64,000 nt of DNA from Gemmatimonadales bacterium. Lineage in GTDB: Bacteria; Gemmatimonadota; Gemmatimonadetes; Gemmatimonadales; GWC2-71-9. The stretch lies in NCBI GenBank assembly GCA_037189525.1, contig JBBCJC010000002.1, forward strand, positions 736,001-800,000. The letters are read 5' to 3'. Position numbers: made by a program. Positions 18,001 through 39,000 of the stretch are shown here, piece by piece; the first letter of the stretch is position 1, and each line of letters starts with the position of its first letter.

Positions 18001-21000
18001 CTCGGCGCTTCCGGATGATCCTCACCATGCCCGGCGACCTGACCTACACCTTCATCGATCGACCCGGTGATCTCTACCTCGCCTCGGTCGAGCGGCGTTT
18101 GCCGCCGCATACACCCGGAGTGCCGAGTGCGGCGTTCGTCGAGCGGATCACGCTGGGCGCGCCGATCGCGGTCGACGACAACGGCACGCTCCGATCCGCG
18201 GCGCGGCTCGGCGATCTGGTGCGCGAAGTCTCGGACCTCCAGATCGCGCGCCGAGGCGAGACCTTCGTGCTGGCCGTGACCGATACGCTCTACCGTGCCG
18301 ACCTGGCGCTCAGGCTCTCTGCCCGGCTGACGGGATCGTTTCGCCCGCTAGCACTGAGCCTGGACGAGCAGGGTCGTGCGCACCTGGTGGTCATGACGGC
18401 GACAGGGCCCGCCCTGTGGGTGGTCGAGCCGGACGGGCGCCGAGTGGTCGACCGGTCCGTGCCGCTCACGTCCAAACGGCTCCTGGCGCCGCCCATCATC
18501 AGCCATCACCACCAGATCTATCTGGTCTACGCTGATCGGATCACGGCGTTCGAGTCCGACGGGCGTTCGTGGTGGGATACGAGATTGGATACCATTGCTG
18601 GTGCCGTGCTGACGGCCGATGACCAGTTGCTGGTGGCGGCGGGCCGGCAGGTGCTGGCGTATCGCGGCGCTGCGGCCGCGGTGCTTGCCACGGCGCTCGA
18701 CCCGTTGGTGACGCCGCCGATTCTCTCGGGGACCGGCCTCCTGCTGGTGGCGTCGGCCGATGCGCTCTTTGCCTACGAAGCAACCGGAAAGCGGCCATGA
18801 AGATCAGCCAATCGCAGGCCGACGCGCTGGGCGGCTGCAGCGAGTGCGCCCATGCGCCGGTGGAGGGCGGCTCATCCGGTGGCGAGGGGGGGCCGTCGGT
18901 GGTGGTGGCCGATCCAACCAAGTCGGCGTGGATCGTGATCGAGCTGATCGACTCGACCGGCGCGCCACGCGCGGGCGAGGCGTTTTCGGTACGCCCGTCG
19001 GGTGGATTGCCGATTGAAGGAACGCTGGACCCGAAAGGCAAAGTTCGCATCGAAGGGATCGACCCGGGAAGCTGCGCCGTGTCCTTCCCCAAGCTGGGGT
19101 ACCAGGCCGAGCAGGCAACGGCAAGCTGAGCACAGGGCGCGGCCGTCCGGGTGGATTCAAAACGATCGAGAATCTCCATGTCTCTGGTCAATGAGCGACT
19201 GCTGTCCATCATCCAGGTCCGGGAGTGGGCCGTGCGCGGTCGACTCTTTGCGATCATCGATGCATGTGATGCGCCGGCCGTTCCCCTCCGTGCCCGTGAC
19301 GCGGGGCCGGAGCGGGCCGTTTCGCTCTATCGCGGCCGGGCGGAGGAGGACCTCTGGGCAGTGGCGCCGTATCTGTTTCGGGTCGATCCCGAGCTCTTCG
19401 ACTGGATCAGCGCCGAGCTGTGGTCGACGTCGTGGGGCATCTTTGCCGTCGCGGATACGAGCCTCGACGCGATGCGACTCCATTTCCGGCGCTTTCTGAC
19501 CGTGCGAAATCCGCAAGGCGAGCCCTGGTACTTCCGGTTCTACGATCCCGCCGTGTTGCCCACGTTCCTGGCGACCGCGGACGCCGAGCAGGTGATCGAC
19601 TTCATCGGACCGGCGCGCGCTCTCGCGGCGACCGATCCGGTTTCGTACGGAATCCGGGTCTTTACTAGGCGTGACGGTCCAATGAGGGGCGAGCGTCCGC
19701 GCCCCGCGATCGCAGTCCGGCGCGCGCGTTGACTCCGTTCTGTTCGATTTCCGTTCGTTGGGATCAGGATTCCGTCGCATCGTTGTCGCTCGACCCGTCA
19801 GGTCGCCTTCGCAAGCTGAGCATTCTCGTTCCGGGAGGGACCATGGCCGGCTCGAACACCCGCGAGATCCGTAACGAAGATGGCGACGTCATTGCGCGCG
19901 TCTCGGAAGAGAATCCGGGCACGGTGCTCCAGTGTCTCCGGTGCGAATTGGCGGGCGAGGTCCGGGAGCTGATCGAATATCCCCCCACCTGGGCCAAGCT
20001 GTCCGATCGCAATTTGTTCGCGTTGTGCCGACAGGGTGACGTCCGGTGAAGATGGAACGATGAGTCGGTCCGCTGCGCGAGTGTCCGATCTGTATCCCTG
20101 TCCTAGGTGATGGGGATCGTACCGTACGTGGGAGGGCGGATTTTCCTGTCCGGACAGGGCAGGATGGGGCCGGCTCGGGTATGGCCGGGTGCTGTCAAAT
20201 TCGTACGGAGCGGGCCTCCCGGACGGCTGTCGATACCTTTGACATACGGCGCCCCAGGGTGCAATGCTTGACCGGGCCTAACGGTTGCCGCTACACTATC
20301 ATACCTCCTCTACCCCCTGCGGATGCCAACATATAGTGTCGATCTCACGACCGAGCGTGGCGTTTCGCGGGTGTCCTTTACCCTCGATGACGACCGCCCG
20401 TTAGGGCTGCAGATCAATCATATCCTCGAGGAGTTTCGCCAGCGGGGACTGGTGCTCAAGGGTGGTCCCGAGGACGAGTTGATGGTCGCCTGGAACGGGC
20501 GGCCGGTCGATGGCAGCAGGACGCCGCATGCGCTCGGCATCTCGCCGCTGCACGCCATCGAGTTGCGGATGCGGCCGCGGAGCGCCGCCGTGGTCGCCCG
20601 GGTCGAACCCCCCGCGGCGCCCTTCCTGTCGAAGACATCGTACCTGGCGCTGGTGACGGCCTGTACCGGCGCGGCGATCGCGTGGATCGTGACGGCCACG
20701 CTGTTCACGGATCTGGGAGATGTGCTGACCAGCTACGGGACGCTAGACGTCGTGGTGGCCACCGTGCTCGGTGCGGCGGTCGGGGGTGTCCTGCTAGGTG
20801 CGCTTGCGCGGGCTCGAAGCGAGTCGGTGGTGGTTGGGCTGGCGGCGGGAATCGGGCTCGGAGCCGTCGGGGCGGCCATGGGGGCATTCTCGGGTCTCGT
20901 GATTGCGGGGTACGCCGGGCTCGGCGACTCGCGCCAGAGCTTCATCGTCGCGCGGTTGGTGACCTGGGCGTTGGCCAGCGGCTTCCTCGGCATGTTCCTG

Positions 21001-36000: not shown

Positions 36001-39000
36001 GCGCTGCTACCGTACCGTGCTCGAACCCGAGCCGGTTCTCGTCCTCGAACTGGCGAGTGGCGGGAGCCTGCGGGAACGTTTGGAAAGCGGGCCGTTAAGC
36101 GTTCAGCGGGCCGCCGACGTGGTCTGCCAGGTAGCCGATGCGCTCGACTGGCTGCATGGCAACGGCGTCTATCATCGCGACGTCAAACCGTCCAACATCC
36201 TGATCATGGCCGACGGCACGGTTCGCCTGGCTGATCTCGGTGTGGCGGCCTGCGGGACTCCGCCGCGCGGCTTGCCCGAAGGATGGATCGAAGAGGAGAT
36301 CGGGACGCTGGGGTACGCCGCGCCGGAGTTGCTCCGTGACCCCGCGCTGGCCACGGCCGCCATCGATGTGTATGCGCTCGGGGTGACCTTGTGCGAGTTG
36401 CTGATCGGAGCGCTGCCGTTGGTCTTTCCCGAGGGTGAATCGGAGGCCGAACTGCGGCAGCGGCTTGCGCAGGGACCGACGCCCGTGCTTCCGCGCGGAC
36501 TGGAGGAGCCGATGCGTACCGTTGTCCGTGGAGCGATTGCGCCGCTGCCCACCGAGCGGCCTGCGACGGCGGCGGCGTTTGCGGCGGCCGTGACCCGAGC
36601 AGCGAACCGGATGGTGTGATGCGCGGCTGCCGGACCGGCGCTAGGGGCCGCCGGCGGTCACGGTCCAGCGATCGCGCCGATCGCGGAAACGGTCGATGTG
36701 CAGATGGAGGCCCGTTCCCGCCCGATCGTTCCAGCCGCGGGCCCGGGCCGCCTGGATCTGCGCCTGCAGGATGGCATCGGTCGAGAAGTCTTTGACCCGG
36801 ATTCCCGAACGGCCGAACGCATCGATCAGAAAACGAACCTGTTCGGTGGAGAGGTCGCGCACGCGAATGTCCAGCGCGCTTCCTTTGCCGTACAGTGAAA
36901 CGTGCTCGGCGTGGTCCTGGCCGGTAATCGTAAACGGACGACTGTGGGCGGCCTGGAACGCGGTCTGGACCCGGTCGACCGCCTGGCGGAACTGATCGGC
37001 GGTCAGGTTCGAACTCAGCGTCTGACTCAGGTCGGCCAGCTTGCCGCCAGCTGCGCGAAGGCCGGCGGGCGGGTTGAGGCGATGAGCCTGGTAGATGTCC
37101 CGGACCGCCTTTGCCACCGTGTTGATGCTGGGCTCGACCCACGGGTTCCGGGCAATCGGGCTCGCGTCCAGCACGGTGATGGCGTCGGCCAACTGGCGAA
37201 GCCCTTCCTCCTGCAGGCCCAGATCGAGCAGTGTCGCTCCCCGTTCCAGACTTCGGGTCGATTCTACCATCAGACTGTCGTAGAGCCGCCCCTCGGCTTC
37301 GGTGAGCGGCGGTGGTCCCTCCGGTCCCCCGGCAGCCGATCGGACCGTGCGGACTAGCAGGGACGCGCCGTAGACACCGGCCGCGACGATCAAACCGATG
37401 GCCAGCCAGGCCCAGATCGGGAACCCGACCCGCGCCGATCCCGCTCGCCGCCTCCGCTTCCACCACCGAGCCCGGCGAGGAGCCTCGGGCGCATAGACCG
37501 GTGCGGGGTCGGGCTCCACCGGCTTGGCGCGCACCGCTCCGGTGACGAACTCGTAGCGCGCTGCAGGGGCAAACTCGATGATATCGGCGTCCGACAGTCG
37601 CGTGGCGGCCGAGATCTGGCGGCCTCCCACGCGTACGGTCGTGGCGCTGGAGAAGGGCGTCAGGTAAAAACCGTCTTCGCGCTCGGTAATCGAGGCGTGC
37701 CGGTCGGCGATGCCCGGCAGGTGGAGCCGGAGCGTGCTCGACGCGGAGGATCCGATCCAGAACGGCGACCGGTCGACGACGGCGGCCTCGCCCCGAGTCG
37801 GGGCAGCCGGGGCAAGGCGAGGAGGCGCAGGCATCGGATTCAAGATGCTGCAGGCATTGGGCCGTGGCCAGACCCTAGCCAGTCTGATTTGCGGACGTAG
37901 GTTTGGGCTCGGCCCGTCCCTATTTTGCACGATTGGATACCTGAGAAACCTCGCGGAGCCCACCGGGGCGACGCGGTGAGGATGCATGGGCTGGATTGCT
38001 TCGATAAGCGCAGTGCTGCTGTGGGCCGCGATGCCGGGGATGGTGAGAGCCCAGAACGGGCCCATCACGATCTTTGCCGGTCGCGTCATCGATGGCCAGG
38101 GCACCGTGCATCGAAATGCGACAGTGGTCGTCGATCGTGGCCGAATCCTTCGGATCGAGCCGCGGAAACTGGACGCACCCGCCTATGATTTTCCGCGGGC
38201 CACCGTCATGCCCGGCCTGATCGATCTGCACGTGCATCCGACCTGGTACATCACCACTAAAGGCCGGATGCACGTCGCCGGCGACGGCGATTCTCCCGCC
38301 ACGGCAACTCTCGCGGCGGCGGCTAATGCATACCGCACCCTGATGGCCGGCTTCACGACCATCGTCAGTTTGGGTGCGCCCGAAGATCGCGATCTACGGG
38401 ATGCCATTGCGGCCGGAACCACGCCGGGTCCACGCGTGCTGACCAGCCTGGCGCCGATCACGGATAGCGCGCTGACACCGGAGCAACTGCGAAGTCAGGT
38501 GCGGGAACGGGTGGCGGCTGGTGCGGACCTGATCAAAGTCTTCGCGTCGGCGCGTCTGGCCGACGGGGGCGGATCGACCTTTCGCCCGGCGCAGCTCGAA
38601 GCAATCTGTCAGGAAGCCCGCAGCGCCGGCGTGCGTACCTTTGTCCATGCGCACCGCGACGAGAGCATCCAGGCGGCGGCCGAAGCCGGATGCGATCAGG
38701 TGGAGCATGGTCTGTTTGCGACCCGCGCCGCCTTGGATCTGATGGCATCGAAGGGGACCTCGTTCGGTCCGCAGTGTAGCCTGATTTTCCGGAACTATCT
38801 GGACAATCGGCGCTGGTTCCAAGGGTTGCCGGGCATGGGCGACGACTTCTTTGCCGCCATGGAGCGCTCGGTGCCGCTGGCGGTAGGCGCGCTGCGCGAA
38901 GCGATCGGGGTGCCGTCGTTGACGATCGGATTCGGCACCGATGCTTTTGCGGGTTCCCACGGGCGGAACGCCGACGATCTGGTCTGCCGGGTCCGCCAGG

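Follow-up and report, generated by a model that had tools for sequence, protein, structure and literature searches.

The cluster at positions 20323-37834 of the window (the whole stretch of 64,000 nucleotides that was analysed) raises the question of whether a type VI secretion system (T6SS) carried by a Gemmatimonadota is a member of the Bacteroidota class T6SSiii, as the first-pass annotation had proposed, or represents a lineage of its own, and of what holds such a machine in the envelope. Judged by sequence and structure prediction, the cluster encodes a T6SS of working type, complete though strongly divergent, whose core parts are nearer to those of Bacteroidota T6SSiii than to T6SSi, yet fall in a separate deep clade and are no T6SSiii member. 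We read it, with a rough probability of 0.6, as a fifth T6SS lineage, probably sister of T6SSiii, with an FHA-based and probably phospho-regulated membrane complex. For this lineage, which we are inclined to place outside the four described T6SS classes, we use the name 'GA-type' (Gemmatimonadota/Acidobacteriota). If the reading is true, there is a T6SS lineage whose anchoring membrane proteins form a set not described before. The host is described as a soil-type bacterium.

Core machine genes and their distribution

The coordinates and gene content of the cluster were confirmed by Pfam, NCBIfam and profile comparison, with TssB, TssC, Hcp, VgrG, TssF, TssG, TssK and ClpV all encoded on the plus strand. 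The small sheath subunit TssB (22801-23271; VipA, 25.8 bits) reached 96.8% in hhalign with T6SSiii TssB versus 94.8% with T6SSi TssB. The large subunit TssC (23268-24602) matched PF17541 as its sole family, at 76 bits (E 3.7e-21) against a Pfam cut-off of 25, which reproduces the earlier finding, and could be aligned from end to end with the TssC of Bacteroidota (~21% identity); VipB was not matched by it in Pfam or NCBIfam. Neither VipB nor TssJ, TssL, TssM or TssA (ImpA_N) was found in the genome, which is 98.1% complete, and the description as a T6SS lacking TssJLM and TssA stands. Hcp (25037-25477) was recognized through its hhalign match with the Hcp family of T6SSiii (95.4%, E 1.8e-8), and the same ORF was the window's best match to a T6SSiii Hcp HMM (E 0.0032). 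Between tssC and hcp lies a low-complexity ORF, p130 (24617-25009, +), kept in Gemmatimonadota (tblastn matches in 8/8 relatives, over 40-100% of its length) and giving no match in family scans.

The ORF at 25508-25900 (+) occupies the place of TssE and has its size, and it is kept in 25 sequences, L053 among them; its presence at that position is upheld, but its earlier reading as weakly gp25/TssE-like found no backing in any sequence method used, and we call it a putative TssE. It is followed by the VgrG spike (25897-27744; Phage_base_V E 3.5e-25, TIGR01646) and by the baseplate genes tssF (27752-29482; hhalign to T6SSiii TssF 99.5%, E 7.7e-23, 518 columns), tssG (29479-30387; PF06996 E 4.6e-12) and tssK (30387-32027; TIGR03353 73 bits, hhalign to T6SSiii TssK 99.3%). 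The sheath-recycling AAA+ ATPase ClpV/TssH (32033-34687; NCBIfam) is ClpB-like along its entire length, the ClpB model scoring 904 bits in one stretch. The sole RNA hint of expression comes from two short contigs in one metatranscriptome.

Rarity of the PF17541-type TssC in the phylum, first counted as 6/301 genomes, is seen again in the larger sample, where nine of 401 Gemmatimonadota genomes (~2%) carry it. The same clade occurs in nine of 401 sampled Acidobacteriota (~2%), in eight of them at full length, which adds a second phylum to a picture previously confined to Gemmatimonadota. Synteny, noted before in three other Gemmatimonadota genomes, now extends to eight further ones and to 26 of 79 genome_contigs loci, of which 25 bear the title of Gemmatimonadota or of a sub-group and one that of Bacillota, and the gene order is common to Gemmatimonadota and Acidobacteriota.

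Membrane proteins and kinase

Upstream of tssB, g01360 (20323-21468, +) encodes a predicted membrane protein whose new AF2 model (pLDDT 93.9, pTM 0.80) consists of an N-terminal beta-grasp domain (residues 1-85), six TM helices (104-287) and a C-terminal FHA domain (289-376). Structure searches (VIA/Foldseek) matched it to EccD5 (chain 7b9f_X, Z 11.3) and to the EccD5 ubiquitin-like (Ubl) domain (7b7j, Z 10.5, rmsd 2.1), and its FHA part to known FHA domains at Z ~11, so that the EccD-like Ubl, TM and FHA architecture recognized earlier is borne out for the Gemmatimonadota copies. In Acidobacteriota the orthologues (hhalign 99.7% and 99.6%) lack the Ubl domain, which removes it as a ground for an analogy with TssN. 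The gene is found in all nine TssC-positive Gemmatimonadota genomes and in all eight Acidobacteriota with a full-length TssC, always ~3 kb upstream of tssC in the latter; the remaining 393 Acidobacteriota of the sample lack it, and two Gemmatimonadota genomes without a TssC match carry strong Ubl-less homologues.

Its neighbour g01361 (21468-22754, +) would have a signal peptide, a periplasmic vWA domain (E 8.4e-11), a C-terminal TM anchor and a cytoplasmic tail, as judged by hydropathy, and is kept adjoining tssB in both phyla. The tail carries an invariant motif, R-x-[PAQ]-x-[DE]-x-T, in 29/29 family members versus 5/1095 control ORFs. Natural fusions of the two genes (4/76 representatives matching g01360), together with their co-occurrence with TssC (9/9 Gemmatimonadota, 8/8 Acidobacteriota), argue that both are part of the system, as the first-pass annotation had it. 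Its view that the membrane set is reduced to these two has to be given up. A third protein, FHA1 (34684-35796, +), with a signal peptide, a periplasmic helical region, a TM helix and a cytoplasmic C-terminal FHA domain (E 2.2e-14; hydropathy), is kept in both phyla, homologues of 738 and 690 aa following clpV in both Acidobacteriota loci examined. The non-canonical membrane genes common to both phyla are thus three: the 6-TM protein with FHA, the vWA protein and the bitopic protein with C-terminal FHA. A fourth, FHA2 (36641-37834, -), has a cytoplasmic FHA domain (Z 17.4), a TM helix and a YscD/PrgH-like periplasmic domain; Yop-YscD_cpl was detected in 5/7 members and Yop-YscD_ppl_3rd in 4/7, with 5.1e-5 as the best E; the copy in the window scores 13.3 bits for the YscD-type signal, under the cut-off. 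FHA2 was absent from the Acidobacteriota stretches examined.

A Hanks-type Ser/Thr kinase consisting of the kinase domain only (35804-36619, +; Pkinase E 9.2e-36) lies between FHA1 and FHA2, and such kinases occur in or near many related clusters. No PP2C phosphatase appeared in a Pfam scan of the cluster's genes. Measured against the motif that we take to be the usual phospho-Thr-binding one, neither g01360 nor FHA2 appears to have these residues in its FHA domain, and FHA1 appears to lack the Arg, which makes phospho-dependence uncertain.

The most serious alternative is that the FHA, vWA and kinase genes form a mere signalling module like PpkA/Fha/TagH, g01361 and the kinase acting as a split PpkA-like sensor kinase, and that the anchor is encoded elsewhere or unneeded. 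PpkA itself has a periplasmic vWA domain, and no outer-membrane component was identified for the present system. Kinase and FHA regulators are moreover common as T6SSi accessories, as set out in the relevant part of PMC13584744. We nevertheless consider this explanation improbable, given that the cluster holds no other conserved membrane protein in either phylum, that the genome is without any known anchor, and that the 6-TM protein strictly co-occurs with TssC at a fixed place adjoining tssB. The architecture of FHA2 is moreover of the ring-forming scaffold type, and the FHA domains look partly non-canonical.

Relationship to described T6SS classes

T6SSiii remains the nearest described relative. 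A tblastn search with TssC against 72,556 plasmids matched seven records, all Bacteroidota (T6SSi TssC is found on 584 plasmid records), and the profile scores of TssC, Hcp, TssF, TssK and VgrG are higher for T6SSiii than for T6SSi (Hcp reaching just 0.2% in hhalign with T6SSi Hcp), in a comparison where the T6SSi profiles hold 3-4 sequences and those of T6SSiii 24-53. A tree with T6SSi and T6SSiii references, which the first-pass annotation lacked, was calculated for TssC with two T4-like phage sheaths as outgroup. The GA clade (100/100), T6SSiii (94/94) and T6SSi (100/100) were recovered separately, and the best tree joined GA and T6SSiii (86/70), but the rival topology with GA grouped with T6SSi was not rejected (AU p 0.298). 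On these sequence data the GA lineage is probably the sister of T6SSiii. In a quick ClpV tree the three groups were likewise clades of 100% SH-aLRT within one ClpV clade, apart from ClpB.

One could still argue that the cluster is a T6SSiii that moved from Bacteroidota and whose TssN-R diverged past recognition, g01360 being TssN and g01361 the vWA module of TssR. The PF17541 match well above its cut-off, the solely Bacteroidota plasmid relatives and the GA+T6SSiii grouping all speak in its favour, and PMC10781749 describes TssN as EccD-like, a Ubl domain accompanying its TM helices, and likens TssR_D2 to a vWA domain. Even so, such a descent appears distinctly unlikely, and neither membership in T6SSiii nor the TssN-like hub of the earlier account was sustained. 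In both trees the GA sequences are a clade of their own, not nested in T6SSiii, and GA TssC is 18-25% identical to T6SSiii TssC and 10-17% to T6SSi TssC, whereas identity is at least 33% within T6SSiii and at least 32% within T6SSi. Comparison with TssN/O/P/R gave hhalign probabilities of at most 1.2%, and reverse HMMs found nothing at E <0.1 in the window. The Ubl domain is N-terminal in g01360 of Gemmatimonadota and C-terminal in TssN, besides being absent in Acidobacteriota. Finally, the Gemmatimonadota and Acidobacteriota TssC copies form reciprocal sub-clades, which favours long residence over recent transfer. That the machine is an eCIS/CIS-like contractile injection system, cytoplasmic or released, merely carrying ClpV and with no cell anchor, is very improbable, despite the absence of canonical membrane complexes and the phage sheath clusters among the Atlas look-alikes of TssC, since the split TssB/TssC sheath, TssK and a ClpV that groups within the ClpV clade are T6SS hallmarks, TssC is 14-18% identical to phage sheaths, the T4-like outgroup stands apart at 100/100 in a tree that includes no eCIS sheaths, and a Pfam scan of the cluster's genes, though no search was aimed at these types, revealed no tail-fibre, tape-measure or terminator gene.

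Upstream cargo region

The system reaches further upstream than first drawn, and 20323-37834 does not delimit it. A 476-aa PAAR-domain protein (11978-13408, -; PF05488 E 3e-24), the genome's single PAAR match, is likely the spike tip, with C-terminal cargo of undefined type. Next to it, a 1350-aa protein (13453-17505, +) with a weak OmpA-like stretch and, in its translation, an HEAGH motif that we take to be zinc-protease-like is absent from eight relatives and is a candidate strain-variable effector. A 438-aa ORF (17484-18800, +) showed a sub-threshold PQQ_2 match only and no conservation in relatives. It is followed by a DUF4123 (Tap/Tla1-like) effector adaptor or chaperone (19151-19732, +; PF13503 E 1.8e-29, NCBIfam Tla1 E 7.3e-7), DUF4123 genes being upstream in 6/28 lineage loci (on the opposite strand in L030, L039, L046, L052 and L054), and by a small ORF of 106 aa (19729-20049, +) with tblastn matches in G126, L030 and L031 and no family match in the Pfam scan.

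Proposed machine and comparison with known systems

We infer machine function and FHA-based regulation from genes and predicted structures. Sequence and structure prediction give the GA-type machine a two-part TssB/TssC contractile sheath around an Hcp tube that ends in VgrG and PAAR, on a baseplate of TssF, TssG, TssK and possibly TssE, with ClpV for recycling the sheath and a variable cargo region with its DUF4123 adaptor upstream of the machine genes. The envelope anchor would be neither TssJLM nor TssNOPQR; conservation and topology, together with the lack of alternatives, suggest a lineage-specific membrane complex instead. Its candidate inner-membrane core is g01360 (6-TM and FHA, with the Ubl added in Gemmatimonadota), paired with and sometimes fused to the periplasmic vWA protein g01361, and accompanied by the bitopic FHA1 and, in Gemmatimonadota, by the YscD/PrgH-like FHA2. 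The cytoplasmic FHA domains could serve as a docking platform for the TssK baseplate, and assembly may be controlled by the cluster's Ser/Thr kinase phosphorylating a threonine that the FHA domains would bind, the best candidate being the one in the invariant motif of g01361's cytoplasmic tail. T6SSi assembly is described, in the part of PMC13584744 that treats it, as being under kinase/FHA control, including FHA binding to phospho-TssL, and the regulation proposed here would be a built-in version of this PpkA-Fha/TssL threonine-phosphorylation pathway.

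Core machine of the cluster

The main gene row of the cluster runs on the plus strand from 20323 to 36619 almost without gaps and is followed by a divergent last gene, FHA2 (36641-37834, minus strand). The first-pass annotation had described at this site a type VI secretion system (T6SS), and its gene content is borne out by Pfam and NCBIfam searches and by hhalign profile comparisons: the generic parts of such a machine are found, namely a TssB and TssC sheath, Hcp and VgrG together with a PAAR protein, a TssF, TssG and TssK baseplate, and ClpV. All core genes lie on the plus strand. 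The small sheath protein TssB matched VipA in Pfam with 25.8 bits, a call that hhalign supports, and the large sheath protein TssC matched PF17541 alone (76 bits against a cut-off of 25, E 3.7e-21). The spike VgrG and the baseplate protein TssG were recognised by Pfam/NCBIfam, as were the von Willebrand A (vWA) protein, two FHA proteins and a Hanks-type kinase, and TssK by TIGR03353 (73 bits). The ClpB-like AAA+ ATPase at 32033-34687 (plus strand) is ClpV/TssH by Pfam/NCBIfam and by its place in the ClpV clade of our tree. With profiles built from relatives, hhalign matched TssF to Bacteroidota TssF at 99.5% (E 7.7e-23) and the tube protein Hcp to the Hcp of T6SSiii, the class described from Bacteroidota, at 95.4% (E 1.8e-8). 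The putative TssE, a conserved 130-aa ORF between hcp and vgrG, is named by position only, and neither hhalign (1.9%), a PDB profile search nor reverse HMMs gave a gp25/TssE signal in it; profile searches of Hcp and of this ORF against solved structures returned no useful match. A second ORF of 130 aa, the low-complexity p130 (24617-25009, plus strand), is kept between tssC and hcp in Gemmatimonadota.

No match to the VipB-type TssC (PF05943) was found in the window's TssC protein or in the whole genome, which is 98.1% complete, and TssJ, TssL, TssM and TssA (PF12790, PF09850, PF06761 and PF06812, the last being ImpA_N) are likewise absent from it; every one of these family searches gave matches in an E. 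coli control. The parts list is that of a contractile, ClpV-recycled T6SS from which the known anchors are absent and with which new membrane genes are strictly associated.

When ClpV proteins were compared with the ClpB model, a comparison covering window 32033-34687 and the loci L134, L135 and L145-L147, those of the Gemmatimonadota/Acidobacteriota lineage (hereafter GA) gave a single end-to-end match of 904-962 bits and those of T6SSiii gave two pieces (348 and 400 bits), a pattern that a differing middle region could explain. A tandem pair of Hcp-like ORFs was seen at about 11.5-12.8 kb in three loci of one Gemmatimonadota family (L035, L036, L037).

Small shares of the window turned up in two sequencing runs, one of RNA and the other probably of DNA. 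The metatranscriptome, which is from sludge, yielded a tssC contig of 267 nt (7 differences) and another of 216 nt that is identical to 24628-24843, inside p130; its remaining pieces are 35-45-nt matches to conserved AAA+ motifs. Since DNA carry-over is possible, these contigs do not demonstrate transcription.

Upstream of the cluster lies the sole PAAR match of the genome (11978-13408, minus strand), flanked by genes for two large proteins in which OmpA-like or peptidoglycan-binding stretches occur, one at 10245-12218 (minus strand) and the other a 1350-aa protein with a HEAGH motif at 13453-17505 (plus strand); both are possible cell-wall-directed cargo. A DUF4123 adaptor is also encoded upstream. 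The PAAR, HEAGH and DUF4123 genes are variable and show no conservation in relatives, as would be expected of cargo.

Phylogenetic position

The first-pass annotation took the machine for a T6SSiii found outside Bacteroidota. According to the accessible text of PMC13584744 there are four T6SS classes, of which T6SSiii is restricted to Bacteroidota, and that of PMC4793230 likewise places T6SSiii in Bacteroidetes only; the hosts of the present lineage are Gemmatimonadota and Acidobacteriota. Its TssC does belong to the PF17541 type, and T6SSiii is indeed its closest described relative, but neither TssC nor ClpV falls within the T6SSiii clade. Identity of TssC between GA and T6SSiii is 18-25%, compared with at least 33% inside T6SSiii, at least 32% inside the described class T6SSi, and 48-56% between the Gemmatimonadota and Acidobacteriota members of GA; GA and T6SSi share 10-17%, and T6SSiii and T6SSi 11-16%.

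A maximum-likelihood TssC tree (LG+C20) was built on 42 of the 78 sequences extracted, chosen by length and spread before the tree was known: 13 of 24 Gemmatimonadota-type, both Acidobacteriota, 17 of 42 Bacteroidota and all eight T6SSi sequences, with two T4-like phage sheaths as outgroup. Four T6SSiii and four T6SSi plasmid loci served as named references, and the tree speaks to these two classes, T6SSii and T6SSiv references not being among its rows. T6SSi (100/100), T6SSiii (94/94) and GA, with Gemmatimonadota and Acidobacteriota together (100/100), were recovered as separate clades. GA and T6SSiii were joined with a moderate support of 86/70, and the rival grouping of GA with T6SSi was not rejected by the AU test (p 0.298), for which reason the sister relation counts as likely. 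In a quick tree of ClpV proteins, to which ClpB and ClpA/C were added, all ClpV proteins formed one clade apart from ClpB (95% SH-aLRT), with sub-clades i, iii and GA at 100% each and an unresolved branching order among them. The GA profiles of TssC, VgrG, TssF, TssK and Hcp scored higher against T6SSiii than against T6SSi, those of TssB and TssG scored alike against both, and the T6SSi profiles in this comparison were built from just 3-4 sequences. We conclude that the cluster represents a lineage of its own at class level, that T6SSiii is the nearest relative described so far and that, on these sequence comparisons, GA is likely to be the sister group of T6SSiii.

A tblastn search of the window TssC against 72,556 plasmids returned seven records, all of them Bacteroidota T6SSiii loci at 21-24% identity; T6SSi TssC is present on 584 plasmid records of the same set. 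Against 50,697 phage records the same search gave nothing better than an E of 3.

Distribution and gene order

Metagenome relatives of the window TssC number 827 at E <= 0.001. Among the 120 matches listed, identity is 77-100%, and the 17 that carry an organism name are labelled Gemmatimonadota (Longimicrobium included), bar one Bacillota. PF17541 was detected in 9 of 401 sampled Gemmatimonadota genomes, and the T6SSi-type VipB in 16 of 201; no VipB match is listed for four carriers of the PF17541-type TssC (G000, G126, G196, G038). Of 401 Acidobacteriota genomes sampled, nine pass the PF17541 cut-off, and in eight of these the match is full-length. A scan with the TssC alignment over one genome per species found 464 relatives, and our locus counts rest on the best 80 of these, which make up 79 loci. 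Here 25 loci are titled Gemmatimonadota or a sub-group of it (TssC 68-91% identical to that of the window) and two Acidobacteriota (55% and 53%), after which identity falls steeply to the 21-26% of Bacteroidota. One locus titled Bacillota, from a MAG (L049, TssC 83%), nests within Gemmatimonadota in both the TssC and ClpV trees and is probably mis-binned. Two contigs titled as a Janthinobacterium lividum MAG (L084, L103) carry a TssC of Bacteroidota type, and these too are probably binning errors.

The order in Gemmatimonadota is g01360, g01361, tssB, tssC, p130, hcp, 'tssE', vgrG, tssF, tssG, tssK, clpV, FHA1, FHA2, often with a kinase between FHA1 and FHA2 (35804-36619, plus strand, in the window). 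The two Acidobacteriota loci show the order vWA gene, tssB, tssC, hcp, tssF, tssG, tssK, clpV, and after clpV come a large FHA1 homologue and vgrG.

Upstream of the cluster, the Bryobacteraceae locus L051 (1245-6895) carries genes for a kinase with a fused FGE-sulfatase domain, for two DUF4384 proteins and for a caspase-TPR protein. In another Acidobacteriota locus (L053:4060-6811, minus strand), genes for E1-like (ThiF), prokaryotic RING and E2-like (UQ_con) proteins are divergent from, and adjoin, the 6TM-FHA gene of that locus, which lacks a ubiquitin-like (Ubl) domain; this may be chance or may be a tie to the Ubl domain of the Gemmatimonadota homologues.

Candidate membrane proteins

In the accessible text of PMC10781749, the T6SSiii membrane protein TssN is described as EccD-like, with transmembrane (TM) helices and a Ubl domain, and TssR_D2 as vWA-like. 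It had been proposed that the membrane complex of the present cluster is a reduced version of the TssN-based one. This could not be upheld, and we restate it as a candidate membrane complex of its own. By BLAST, TssN, TssO, TssP and TssR were found in 31, 16, 20 and 3 Bacteroidota loci, respectively, and in none of the GA loci; hhalign of the GA membrane proteins against these four gave probabilities of at most 1.2% (0.3% for TssN), and their HMMs run over the whole window returned nothing at E < 0.1. The GA membrane proteins are thus without profile similarity to TssN, TssO, TssP and TssR, although a distant relation in structure may exist. The order of parts is also reversed, given that TssN has its TM helices N-terminally and its Ubl-like domain C-terminally, and the membrane protein g01360 (20323-21468, plus strand) begins with the Ubl domain.

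The description of g01360 as an EccD-like, FHA-fused membrane protein, and that of its vWA partner, did hold. The AF2 model of g01360 (pLDDT 93.9) shows a beta-grasp Ubl domain (residues 1-85), then six TM helices and an FHA-fold domain, and in a fold search independent of Foldseek its best whole-chain match was ESX-5 EccD (7b9f_X, Z 11.3 and rmsd 21.7, with 194 residues aligned over 1..234). Taken alone, the Ubl domain matched the EccD5 Ubl (7b7j) with Z 10.5 and rmsd 2.1, and the C-terminal domain matched FHA domains with Z about 11 and rmsd about 2. Many ubiquitin and SUMO entries reached Z 9-10 against the same Ubl, slightly under EccD5, and because these scores are nearly equal homology between g01360 and EccD is not shown. 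The family has 76 representatives among 1.8 billion proteins, four of which are natural g01360-g01361 fusions. In Acidobacteriota, the vWA gene has directly upstream of it a clear orthologue of the TM and FHA part of g01360 (hhalign 99.7% and 99.6%), which is without the Ubl domain. The 6TM-FHA gene is present in nine of nine TssC-positive Gemmatimonadota genomes and, among the 401 sampled Acidobacteriota, in exactly the eight genomes with a full-length TssC, always about 3 kb upstream of tssC. Ubl-less homologues (E about 1e-54) also occur in two Gemmatimonadota genomes that have no PF17541 TssC match (G224:C13:25347-26180 and G300:C34:230608-231498), and second copies of the Ubl-less kind in G038 and G356. 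A complex prediction of TssK with g01360 scored 0.00 in both runs, which weighs neither way.

In two distant family members from metagenomes (P0188, P0196), an extra FHA domain stands between the Ubl domain and the TM block, which gives the order Ubl, FHA, TM block, FHA.

In the vWA protein g01361 (21468-22754, plus strand), a signal peptide and a vWA domain are followed by a C-terminal anchor and a cytoplasmic tail. The tail carries the motif R-x-[PAQ]-x-[DE]-x-T, which all 29 of 29 family members share and which occurs in 5 of 1095 other ORFs from the same loci. FHA1 (34684-35796, plus strand), which is kept after clpV in both phyla, is a type-I membrane protein whose FHA domain lies at the C-terminus. 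In FHA2, seen in Gemmatimonadota only, a single TM helix links an FHA domain to a periplasmic domain. Its family matches Pfam Yop-YscD_cpl in five of seven members (best E 3.4e-7) and Yop-YscD_ppl_3rd, the BON-like domain 3 of YscD, in four of seven (best E 5.1e-5), and the window copy reaches 13.3 bits against the latter, under the cut-off of 24.3. Residues 279-349 have a predicted helix-strand-strand-helix-strand pattern, which we take to fit the ring-building motif. The AF2 model of FHA2 (pLDDT 65) is of low confidence in the periplasmic part, and a wide fold search was filled by FHA domains. Conserved periplasmic H and D residues were first taken for a LAS/M15 peptidase motif, which would make FHA2 a peptidoglycan hydrolase; this was dropped for want of support, the PDB profile search having matched FHA domains alone and Pfam having given YscD-like signals. 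The FHA domains of the membrane proteins look partly non-canonical. Besides the kinase and the FHA domains, a Pfam scan of the cluster genes found no PP2C phosphatase.

Proposed working and implications

We propose that the candidate membrane proteins would form the envelope anchor, and that their cytoplasmic FHA domains, together with the Ubl domain in Gemmatimonadota, would offer a docking surface to the TssK baseplate. The kinase may control assembly through phospho-threonine, the foremost candidate being the invariant Thr of the g01361 tail. Control of this kind is proposed on the precedent of the PpkA-Fha-TssL pathway of T6SSi; in the accessible text of PMC13584744, it is an established step in Agrobacterium that FHA binds a membrane-complex subunit in its phosphorylated form. 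The weak points of the model are the partly non-canonical FHA domains, the lack of a cluster phosphatase and of a recognised outer-membrane component, and the unconfirmed TssE. The full reading, to which we tentatively assign a probability of roughly one in three, is that of a fifth T6SS class of Gemmatimonadota and Acidobacteriota, sister to T6SSiii, with an anchor made of FHA-bearing TM proteins (EccD-like, YscD/PrgH-like and bitopic) and a periplasmic vWA partner, a mosaic of type VII and type III building blocks in which phosphorylation of the threonine in the vWA tail motif would act as the switch for docking.

If this is true, GA would be the missing outgroup for tracing the rise of the TssN-based Bacteroidota complex, whose origin is called hard to identify in the accessible text of PMC10781749, no independent locus encoding it being known there. 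No part of the T6SS is less conserved or less well understood than the membrane complex, and the GA candidate anchor set, non-canonical like that of T6SSiii but different from it, would make the evolution of anchoring comparable across three solutions; it would also be a case of FHA domains built into the anchor itself. Set against the four taxon-tied classes of the reviews, the range known for this weapon grows by a fifth deep lineage from two abundant soil phyla, and the cultured species Granulicella arctica, with one annotated member of the 6TM-FHA family, could permit experiments. In regards to earlier reports, PMC9113992 and PMC13098142 cover, in their accessible text, T6SSi of subtype i4b from a Gemmatimonadaceae plasmid as well as single systems borne on plasmids in Acidobacteriota and Gemmatimonadota, and do not report the GA lineage in that text. 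We found no description of it in the full-text literature, a scope that excludes most subscription journals and the supplements, whose tables could list such loci.

Comparison with known systems

With T6SSiii the GA machine shares the PF17541-type TssC, a ClpV, the lack of TssJLM and TssA, and TssC, Hcp, TssF, TssK and VgrG proteins that score nearer to T6SSiii than to T6SSi; the anchor parts overlap as well, a polytopic Ubl protein and a vWA module being described in the accessible text of PMC10781749. It differs in that its TssC and ClpV are separate deep clades, that TssN, TssO, TssP and TssR are undetected, that its Ubl domain is N-terminal and dispensable in one phylum, and that its hosts belong to two other phyla. 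FHA domains are carried by three GA membrane proteins in company with a kinase, whereas the term FHA does not occur in that accessible text.

The threonine-phosphorylation pathway of T6SSi (PpkA/TagE, Fha/TagH and phospho-TssL) has in common with GA the logic of core tail, baseplate and ClpV, and a Hanks kinase with FHA domains. GA is unlike T6SSi in being without VipB-type TssC, TssJLM and TssA, its FHA domains are fused to membrane proteins in place of the soluble TagH, and no phosphatase is seen in its cluster.

EccD has 11 TM helices. The order of a cytoplasmic N-terminal Ubl followed by a TM bundle is shared between g01360 and EccD of the ESX (type VII) systems, but g01360 has six TM helices and a C-terminal FHA domain, and the domain placement fits poorly, as the whole-chain rmsd indicates; a Pfam scan of the cluster and neighbouring genes found no EccC-like, WXG100 or other T7SS family. 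With SctD (YscD/PrgH), which forms the inner-membrane ring of type III systems, FHA2 appears to share the order of its parts, a cytoplasmic FHA domain joined by one TM helix to a periplasmic domain; its Pfam matches are weak, with the window copy below the cut-off, and no further T3SS family was found among the cluster genes in that scan.
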